A stretch of DNA of 64,000 nt, taken from assembly GCF_003334405.1 (NCBI RefSeq), contig NZ_QOWM01000003.1; one strand, given 5' to 3'. How positions within the stretch are numbered: position 1 is the first letter of the stretch; each line of letters begins with the position of its first letter. This document shows positions 1 to 3,000 of the stretch, piece after piece. The stretch is from Escherichia coli. GTDB lineage: Bacteria; Pseudomonadota; Gammaproteobacteria; Enterobacterales; Enterobacteriaceae. The position numbers were made by a program.

Positions 1-3000
1 CCGGAATGAACCAGCCTTCCGGAACCTTAAGGTAAAAGGTTGCCAGCAGCGCAAATACCGCCAGCAGACTGTGGGTAAAACCACGATGCCCAAAAGCGCG
101 GGCGATCGGTTTTGATATCCATTTTAATCGCTGCCCAAGAAACGACTTTGGGTGATCGATGTCCGGTAACAAACACGTTAGGATTGCGGAAGGGACAATA
201 TGCCACCAGTCACCCTGTGCCAGCACGGGCGTCAGCTCGGCATTTTTGGCAAATACCGCACAAGCAATAGAAAAGAGAAGGTGACCTTCCGCCGTCATGA
301 TAAAACTCACTAAACTGTCGATACGTACAGTATAGGATTTTTATACAGTACACGGAAGTGGTGACGGTGTAACTCTTTCTCTTAAATTGACGATTAATCC
401 GTCAGTTGAATGCAATTTCAGATAAAGAACCAGGGGCAGCGAGATCACTGCCCCTGGTCATTAACCGAGAAGGTCTTTTGCGGTGAGTTCTGTCAGCGAT
501 GAGAGTTTGACGTCTGCTAATACAAAACGTGGATCATTTTGCGCTTCTGGCGCAGGAACGACGATGGAACGCATGCGGGCTGCTTTAGAGGCGATCATGC
601 CATTTACCGAATCTTCCAGCGCTACGCAGGTCAGAGGGTCAACGCCCAGTTTTGCTGCGCAGTCGAGATATACTTGCGGATGCGGCTTGCTGTAAGGCAG
701 TTTTTCGGCCGAGGCGAGGGCATCGAAACTGTCGCGTAAGTCAAACATGGTCAACACTTTTTCCAGCATATGTAGTGGTGACGCGGAGGCCAGTCCCACC
801 AATAAACCTTGTTCTTTGCATAACGCAACGGCTTCGCGCACGCCTGGTAATAATGGACGTGTCTCTTCAACCAGTGAAATGGCACGGGCAATAACCCGTT
901 CTACTACTTCCTGACGGCTTGGCCCATTCCACGGTTGCCGGGCGTACCAAAGATCGACCACCATATCGATGCGTAAACCTAAGGTGTCCGGCAGCTCGTT
1001 ACGACGGGAGATATCCACCCCCAGGCTTGCCATCACATCCAGTTCGGCTCGATCCCATAAAGGTTCTGAGTCGATAAGTAATCCATCCATATCAAAAATT
1101 GCAGCAAGAATCTGACGCGGGGTTGACATTACAACCTCTCCTTTAGAGCATTATGTGTAAGGTATTAAGCCGTGCTTATGATTAAGCGCCTATCATATCG
1201 CCTTTAAAGAATGGGCGAAAACAGATATCTACAGGTAAACTAAGTGAAACGACGCGTCTTAATCAAGGAGAACTCATGACGTATCAACAAGCTGGACGCA
1301 TTGCTGTTTTGAAAAGGATTTTGGGTTGGGTGATTTTTATACCTGCATTGATCTCTACATTGATTTCTTTGCTGAAATTTATGAATACCCGGCAGGAAAA
1401 CAAGGAAGGCATTAATGCGGTCATGCTCGACTTTACTCATGTCATGATCGATATGATGCAGGCGAATACGCCTTTTTTGAATTTATTCTGGTATAACTCC
1501 CCGACGCCCAATTTTAATGGTGGCGTGAACGTTATGTTCTGGGTGATTTTCATCCTGATTTTTGTCGGACTGGCGTTGCAGGATTCCGGTGCCCGGATGA
1601 GTCGCCAGGCGCGCTTCTTGCGGGAAGGTGTTGAAGATCAACTCATTCTGGAAAAAGCCAAAGGGGAAGAGGGGCTAACGCGTGAACAAATTGAGTCCCG
1701 TATTGTTGTTCCGCACCATACTATTTTCCTGCAGTTTTTCTCACTGTATATCCTGCCGGTTATTTGTATTGCTGCAGGTTATGTGTTCTTTTCTCTGCTT
1801 GGGTTTATTTAATCAAAAGGCCGCACGGAGCGGCCATTATCCTCAACCCATATCATGCTGCTAATAATCTATCCAATGACTGCTGAGCAATAACCAAATG
1901 CTGACCGCCAAATAACCTTGCACGATTTAACAGCGTGTAGAGTTGGTAAACCGGTTGACGTTCAAGGAAATCGGCAGGTAGCGGGGATACTGACTGATAG
2001 CCGTCATAGATTTGTGGCGGCTGTTCAGTATGCAGCGGTAACATCGCCAGGTCGCACTCTCGGTCACCCCAGTAGCAGGCCGGGTCGAAAATGTACGGGC
2101 CATCCGGACCCAGTGCACAGTTGCCGGACCATAAATCGCCGTGCAACAGAGAAGGCTGCGGTTGATGTGAGGCCAGACGCTGCTGAATATGCTCGACGAT
2201 GGCGTCGATATTGCCGAAAGCGATCCCTTTTTCTGCAGCCAGTTCCAACTGCCAGCCAATCCGTTGTTCAGCAAAAAACGTTGACCAGCGACGTTGCCAG
2301 GTGTTGGGCTGTGGAGTTGTGGAGAGCGCGTTATCGAAATCAAGGCCAAATTGTGGTTGGTCGCTCCATTGATGTAAACGCGCAATTTGCTGACCAAGAA
2401 TAAATGCGCTATGCGCATCCAGCGGACGAGGTGGGAGATAATCCATCACCAGAAAACTGTAGTCACGGTCAGCGCCAACTGCCCAAACCTTAGGCACGGT
2501 GACGGTTTTACTACGCGACAGTAACTCCAGTTGGTCGGCTTCGGCGGTAAAACCGGGAAGCAGTTCCCTTTCATCACATTTGACGAAAAAATCATGTCCT
2601 GCATAGCGCAAATGCCATGCGGCATGGACTTCTCCGCCAGGCAGTTCATTACGCAGTTCGATTTCGCCTTCACCTAACTGCTCGCTCAAAAGACGACTGA
2701 TTGCCTGCCACATGATGTCTCTCCCATGTTGTCTGCCAGATCATAAGGTTAGCGCAAGAATGCGGTGTAAAAACACGAGCTAACGCACACCACAGACTGA
2801 TTATTGCCCAAAAACCATTTATTTTCTGTTGCTATTCCATTCCTCCCAGGTCGTGATGGTGATTTCAGGATCTTTGCCGGTTGCACTTTGGGTAAGCCCC
2901 GAAACCAGTTCTCTAATTTCTTCTTCACTTTGGGTACTGATAAGTCCAAAAGTGTTAGTTCCCAGCTCATGGATATTTCCCTCATCATCCGTCATAGTGA

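Follow-up and report, generated by a model that had tools for sequence, protein, structure and literature searches.

We show that the upstream region of ydjM in Escherichia coli holds two tandem sites for LexA, and that these very probably form the operator of its promoter. The DNA analysed is a stretch of 64,000 nucleotides, hereafter the window, from contig NZ_QOWM01000003.1 of NCBI RefSeq assembly GCF_003334405.1. At positions 313-350, two LexA operators overlap by 2 bp and, in the reading we strongly favor, subject ydjM to classical SOS repression and derepression. The sequences, scores, position and conservation of the two sites were determined here, and LexA binding and lexA-dependent induction are taken from the literature; the position of the promoter, its occlusion by LexA and the cooperativity of binding are what we infer from these. 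A preliminary description of the window had pointed to an exact CTGT-N8-ACAG palindrome at 315-330, followed by a second imperfect copy directly 5' of the ydjM start, and had predicted SOS control of the gene. That placement proved accurate: CTGTCGATACGTACAG at 315-330 is an exact CTGT-N8-ACAG core, the second copy abuts it at 331-350, and together the two boxes occupy the stretch from 14 to 52 nt ahead of the ydjM ATG. The elements are listed below on the minus strand, along which ydjM is read, with strength of the boxes given as the Berg-von Hippel heterology index (HI).

331..350, minus strand: LexA box 2, TACTGTATAAAAATCCTATA; left half consensus, right half CTA for CAG, HI 9.5-10.5
313..332, minus strand: LexA box 1, TACTGTACGTATCGACAGTT; core perfect, spacer G+C-rich, HI 8.9-9.5
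299..312, minus strand: stretch from box 1 to the ATG, TAGTGAGTTTTATC; 14 nt, with a Shine-Dalgarno-like GTGAG at 310..306, as read from the sequence

Read along ydjM, the 52 nt that precede the ATG are therefore TACTGTATAAAAATCCTATACTGTACGTATCGACAGTT, then TAGTGAGTTTTATC, then ATG. The 3' end of the box 1 20-mer falls 14 nt ahead of the ATG (298..296), and the GAG/GGG of the Shine-Dalgarno-like motif is retained in other genera. The two 20-mers share 2 bp, with their centres and their CTGT motifs 18 bp apart, and this 2-bp overlap places the pair within the spacing of double operators, whose sites overlap or lie no more than ~10 bp apart. Box 1 matches the CTGT-N8-ACAG core exactly; box 2 has the CTGT, but its right half reads CCTA, which is neither ACAG nor CCAG.

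Heterology indices were computed with a matrix of 28 chromosomal E. coli LexA boxes, from which ydjM was excluded, and the leave-one-out scores of this matrix correlated with published HI values (r=0.92). Its training sites span HI 0.9-9.5, and functional sites commonly score below ~12-15. Both boxes fall inside this functional range: box 1, at HI 8.9-9.5, and box 2, at HI 9.5-10.5, rank 1 and 2 among the ~128,000 positions on the two strands of the 64 kb, and the third-best LexA site in the window has an HI of 11.56. Scoring against a LexA matrix was a check that the preliminary description had itself proposed, and the values obtained here stand beside published ones of 9.0 for E. coli and 9.12 and 12.85 for Salmonella. 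That description had also called box 1 a "perfect" LexA box, which is right for the CTGT/ACAG core but not for the site as a whole: the penalty of box 1 comes wholly from C8, G9, C13 and G14 of a usually A/T-rich spacer, and with an HI of ~9, at the weak end of known operators, box 1 is a moderate-to-weak operator. The penalty of box 2 arises wholly at positions 17-18, where the right-half CAG has become CTA; the common E. coli allele of this box (CACTGT...) scores HI 10.7-12.0.

The bare core pattern alone is not significant, as CTGT-N8-ACAG occurs twice in the 64 kb against 0.61 expected, and two or more copies were found in 11 of 100 shuffles. A single site at least as good as box 1 (HI <=8.93) likewise appeared in 10% of 300 dinucleotide-preserving shuffles. 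A pair of sites with HI <=10.5 located 10-40 bp apart was found in none of the 300 dinucleotide shuffles. The other CTGT-N8-ACAG in the window, CTGTTGCCGATAACAG at 54504-54519, maps inside pykF according to the annotation of strain RM10410 and was rejected as a LexA site; given its HI of ~21, this core match is attributed to chance.

Conservation of the site was assessed in a set of orthologs collected with a DNA-pattern scan, using the back-translated LPDIDHPK motif on contigs from one genome per species. The scan returned 120 loci, 116 of which encode YdjM homologs. Boxes were sought in the 200 nt before the start, and enough upstream sequence was available for 49 orthologs from free-living Enterobacterales (Escherichia, Citrobacter, Enterobacter, Cedecea, Siccibacter, Erwinia, Pantoea, Serratia, Rahnella, Rouxiella, Yersinia, Pectobacterium, Dickeya and Rosenbergiella). 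In every one of the 49, the best LexA site is the box 1 ortholog, at 13-22 nt before the ATG and with HI 3.7-9.6, and the sole substitution seen in its CTGT is CTGG, which is also found in bona fide LexA boxes. Box 1 is thus conserved among orthologs in the manner of a LexA operator, and the boxes are conserved across four Enterobacterales families.

Box 2 (TACTGTAyAAAAAyCCTATA) is found exactly 18 bp upstream in Enterobacteriaceae, in Erwinia and in one of four free-living Pantoea. Its left half, TACTGTA, is kept across the Enterobacteriaceae and Erwinia, where the sole change is a T>G at position 6 that LexA tolerates. A scoring box 2 at +18 bp is absent in Serratia, Yersinia, Rahnella, Pectobacterium and Dickeya. 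The ydjM genes of these five genera resemble that of the window in the position of box 1 (13-22 nt), in a TATACTG motif and in a GTTAC palindrome, both described below; unlike the window, they have one near-consensus box (HI 3.7-6.5) and no scoring second box. The same near-consensus range holds for box 1 across the single-box genera when Rouxiella is included, and three Serratia species retain a CTGT 19 bp upstream of the CTGG of box 1. The median HI of box 1 is 6.87 in the presence of box 2 and 4.84 in its absence (Mann-Whitney p=1e-4), a difference that is suggestive only, because it essentially compares one clade with another and is confounded by phylogeny. The weaker box 1 found alongside box 2 may reflect compensation, and the design of the operator appears to have shifted from one strong box, as in Serratia, Yersinia, Pectobacterium and Dickeya, to two weak overlapping ones, as in Enterobacteriaceae and Erwinia.

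Neither box is left in reduced-genome symbionts (Ca. Steffania, Ca. Lightella and the stink-bug Pantoea) or in Pandoraea. The reduced insect symbionts retain a ydjM homolog, and the best upstream sites there score HI 15.7-19.7. A scan with phylum-appropriate LexA motifs was extended to 47 distant homologs (25 from Firmicutes, 6 from Actinobacteria, 6 from Alphaproteobacteria and 10 from Beta/Gammaproteobacteria), the S. aureus case lying outside this sample. Among these 47, the sole plausible upstream LexA site came from Morganella, a member of the Enterobacterales, as a core box with one mismatch. Given this near-empty scan, SOS control of ydjM looks specific to Enterobacterales within the sample. 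One-mismatch core matches in Lachnoclostridium and in a Pseudomonas metagenome-assembled genome, one each, were set aside as no more than the background frequency there.

The ydjM SOS operators of Fernandez de Henestrosa et al. 2000 were reportedly used by Courcelle et al. 2001. ydjM is listed among the LexA-regulated SOS genes, and the citing literature credits Fernandez de Henestrosa et al. 2000 (Mol Microbiol 35:1560) with an experimental report of tandem LexA sites at this gene. Published expression data supply the second check put forward in the preliminary description, induction of ydjM in the SOS response. In RNA-seq data, azidothymidine (AZT) induced ydjM 2.5-fold, and its level in wild type exceeded that in lexA3 by 8.6-fold; the HI listed for it there is 9.0. 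With ciprofloxacin, ydjM rose by up to log2 2.6. In Salmonella, where the two ydjM boxes are placed at distances of 14 and 32 nt to the ATG (HI 9.12 and 12.85), nalidixic acid gave a 2.11-fold induction. Moreover, ydjM is among the genes with the largest expression differences when gamma-irradiated evolved E. coli is compared with unirradiated wild type. The predicted SOS/LexA control of ydjM is therefore supported by scores, by conservation and by published lexA-dependent induction.

Comparison with characterized systems shows where the ydjM operators follow known designs. The operators of E. coli K-12 ydjM (b1728) share locus, gene, box 1 sequence and tandem layout with the window, and their published box 1 HI of 9.0 agrees with our 8.9-9.5; relative to K-12, the window has T for C at box 2 position 1 (350). 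The 14/32-nt spacing of the boxes in Salmonella enterica ydjM (STM14_1605), compared by published values, is identical to that of the window. Colicin operons, lexA and recN resemble ydjM in having paired LexA sites, overlapping or separated by a few bp, of which one is the weaker, and double SOS boxes of this type are regarded as binding LexA cooperatively. By analogy, binding at ydjM may be cooperative as well; the weaker box 1 of lineages with box 2 is an indirect hint of this, confounded by phylogeny. In contrast to the colicin operators, which include one strong site, both ydjM sites are only moderate, and the weak site of ydjM combines a consensus left half with a right half whose CAG has been lost to the -10 hexamer and to box 1.

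The position of the boxes relative to a promoter was considered from the following elements.

361..373, minus strand: near-palindrome GTTACACCGTCAC (GTTAC-N3-GT(A/C)AC), present in 49/49 orthologs
353..358, minus strand: CTTCC(G), columns conserved in the 47 orthologs aligned without gaps
352..357, minus strand: TTCCGT, predicted as a would-be weak -35 element, 17 bp upstream of TATACT
329..334, minus strand: TATACT, candidate -10 hexamer, straddling the junction of boxes 1 and 2

TATACTG is invariant in 49/49 orthologs and provides the only conserved -10-like hexamer, with 35-44 nt between TATACT and the ATG across the same set. The boxes, at 14-52 nt before the ATG, thus overlap the conserved candidate -10. 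If TATACT is read as the -10 element, box 1 would cover it together with the transcription start, and box 2 would cover the spacer between -35 and -10. In an undamaged cell, LexA dimers would then occupy box 1, with moderate affinity, and box 2, through one good half-site, the latter probably aided by the dimer on box 1. With the DNA from ~52 to 14 nt before the ATG covered, TATACT included, RNA polymerase would be blocked. Upon DNA damage, RecA-ssDNA (single-stranded DNA) filaments would trigger LexA self-cleavage, the operators would be emptied and ydjM would be transcribed.

Several points weigh against this interpretation. The training sites of the matrix, reportedly those of Lewis 1994 and Fernandez de Henestrosa 2000, are second-hand, and so are the LexA-binding data for ydjM, which come through the citing literature. 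Induction of ydjM is modest, ~2-9-fold, and a Salmonella ydjM gfp fusion gave no detectable fluorescence. Box 2 has no right-half CAG, and the promoter rather than LexA could be what keeps its 3' end conserved. In addition, a strict sigma-70 consensus promoter scan of 200-520 found no site, so that promoter occlusion is deduced from the layout. Lastly, a genomic SELEX (systematic evolution of ligands by exponential enrichment) study that used RpoD holoenzyme assigns a constitutive promoter to the spacer between yniC and ydjM, where the best fit is CTGAAA (421..416), 17 bp and ATTAAT (398..393) on the minus strand, at 393-421 of the window.

In light of these points, one alternative is that box 1 is the sole genuine LexA operator and that box 2 has been conserved as promoter DNA, its A/T-rich middle serving as spacer or as a -10-like TATAAA and its 3' CCTATA being part of TATACT and of box 1. 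The confinement of the box 2 penalty to positions 17-18, where the CAG is lost, and the coincidence of its invariant 3' end with TATACT are both in keeping with this, as are the lack of the box in Yersinia, Rahnella, Pectobacterium and Dickeya, which manage without it, and its polymorphism in E. coli, where 3,836 of 5,426 genomes have the identical 40-mer and one strain carries a 7-bp deletion. We nevertheless regard this alternative as unlikely: the left-half TACTGTA is conserved in Enterobacteriaceae and Erwinia apart from the one change that LexA tolerates, box 2 has the second-best LexA score in the window, tandem sites at ydjM are cited as experimentally reported, overlapping weak and strong boxes are an established design in colicin operators, and box 1 is weaker where box 2 is present (median HI 6.87 vs 4.84). 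A different arrangement would follow if CTGAAA/ATTAAT were the real promoter, since the boxes would then act as a downstream roadblock, with LexA bound ~35-70 nt downstream of the start halting elongation or promoter escape. The SELEX listing, with its best fit, and the lack of a consensus promoter overlapping the boxes speak for such a roadblock. The CTGAAA/ATTAAT pair is a mere best fit within a low-resolution SELEX fragment, though, and the ortholog alignment shows that it is not conserved across genera, while the junction hexamer TATACT and, 17 bp upstream of it, CTTCC are conserved throughout the Enterobacterales; we consider the roadblock very improbable.

That the palindrome is a chance match devoid of regulatory role is scarcely credible. 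The bare core is indeed not rare, with two copies against 0.61 expected, a count reached by 11% of shuffles, and the pykF copy is clearly non-functional. Against this, the two boxes are the top two 20-mers of the window, lie adjacent to each other just before a start codon, are conserved in four families and lost only in reduced symbionts, and belong to a gene with published lexA-dependent induction; conservation and published expression data already contradict a chance origin. Tandem operation of both boxes by LexA accordingly remains the reading that we hold with high confidence.

The same upstream region suggests that LexA might not act alone. The start-to-start distance between the GTTAC palindrome and TATACT is exactly 39 nt in 47 of the 49 orthologs and 38 nt in the other 2, and the conserved CTTCC sits between the palindrome and TATACTG. 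This rigid 39-nt distance, in essentially all Enterobacterales, might reflect a second input into ydjM. It is tempting, if tentative, to suggest that ydjM is controlled by LexA plus a second regulator, or that an unusual promoter combines another signal with SOS. Ideas for the palindrome include an activator site centred near -45 and a sigma-32-like promoter, for which the conserved CTTCC...CCCTATACT would be the sigma-32 (rpoH) candidate; a literature search for ydjM with rpoH surfaced no obviously relevant paper. Elsewhere in the window, GTTAC-N3-GT(A/C)AC has one further match, within pheS (12483-12495), which is probably due to chance.

Within E. coli, 5,165 of 5,426 complete genomes carry an unchanged copy of the 40-mer 296-335, in which box 1 and the ATG lie. 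Box 2 varies more, its canonical 40-mer being found unaltered in 3,836 of the 5,426 and with a single base difference in 1,155. A 7-bp deletion in a single strain, E. coli NIPH17_0036, removes the middle of box 2 (HI ~19), and E. coli R12 has a T>C at position 14 of this box (HI 11.5); the literature already describes a T>C polymorphism of the ydjM LexA site in B2 strains. At position 350, the window has an A on the plus strand, corresponding to T as the first base of box 2; the E. coli and E. albertii sampled carry C at this site. The T allele takes the HI of box 2 from 10.7 to 9.5 (~1.2 lower), toward the consensus, and T also stands at this position in Citrobacter and many other Enterobacteriaceae.

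No exact match to the 91-mer 285-375 was found among the complete E. coli genomes. The 40-mer with the 350 allele had no match in the 5,426 genomes, the adjoining control 40-mer having 5,165 exact matches, and the 40-mers around the differences at 179 and 13495 were likewise unmatched in these 5,426. Over 24 kb, only 5 bases separate the window from strain RM10410, and seven further strains among the matches listed score equal to RM10410. The differing positions are 179, 350, 4842, 13495 and 20758, and their effects, worked out by hand, are in that order a synonymous change at YdjM L40, the change at box 2 position 1, a synonymous Gly codon in ydiY, PheT L311V and HemP K47Q. Given the 5 differences from RM10410 and the unmatched 40-mers, the window looks like a common haplotype with private substitutions, whose source could be an unsampled lineage, a mutagenised strain, an assembly error or deliberate perturbation. 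Separately, ~2.7 kb of the window at ~29827-32564, in the ydiO-ydiQ region (acyl-CoA dehydrogenase / electron-transfer flavoprotein), is deleted in the near-identical RM10410, in which the genes flanking the deletion are annotated as partial.

The first 1.3 kb of the window has at least 95% identity to 5,424 of 5,426 complete E. coli genomes, and the window is E. coli chromosome. According to the RefSeq annotation of the matching E. coli locus, the genes at this end are ydjM (minus strand), hxpB/yniC (minus strand, 461..1129), yniB (plus strand) and yniA (minus strand). Two features frame the operator region.

1..298, minus strand: 5' part of ydjM, first 99 codons, with the ATG at 298..296 (RefSeq annotation of the matching locus)
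428..459, minus strand: strong intrinsic terminator of the upstream co-oriented gene hxpB (yniC); 14-pair stem with 9 G-C pairs, then a T run

Because of the hxpB terminator at 459..428, ydjM forms its own transcription unit and needs its own promoter. The spacer between hxpB and ydjM measures 162 nt and holds no known RNA element, given that an Rfam scan of window positions 1-3000 at E<=1 returned zero matches. The preliminary description spoke of a truncated ydjM. The gene reads leftward off the start of the window, so it is cut by the window edge and is not a pseudogene; RefSeq records a full-length ydjM of 196 aa at the matching locus.

Full-length YdjM matches Pfam PF04307, "YdjM inner membrane protein" (YdjM/DUF457), over residues 1-158 with E 2.4e-35, a significant profile match across most of the protein that assigns it to this family, and it scores 374 bits (cut-off 216) with the NCBIfam equivalog NF008651, "metal-dependent hydrolase". 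A sequence search of the PDB found no relative of solved structure. The term "membrane hydrolase", used in the preliminary description, agrees with this annotation, which in Pfam and NCBIfam is made at the level of the family; YdjM is therefore taken as a YdjM/DUF457 inner-membrane protein with no more than a putative hydrolase function. A "YdjM" mentioned in an enzyme-function preprint is a typographical error for YjdM and was disregarded.

The tandem LexA boxes of ydjM are an already known feature that is conserved in enteric bacteria. Since 2000, ydjM has figured in textbook lists of the E. coli LexA regulon, and reviews refer to its tandem boxes. What our findings add is thus confirmation: a reading made from sequence only found a true operator, and footprinting across genera supports it independently.

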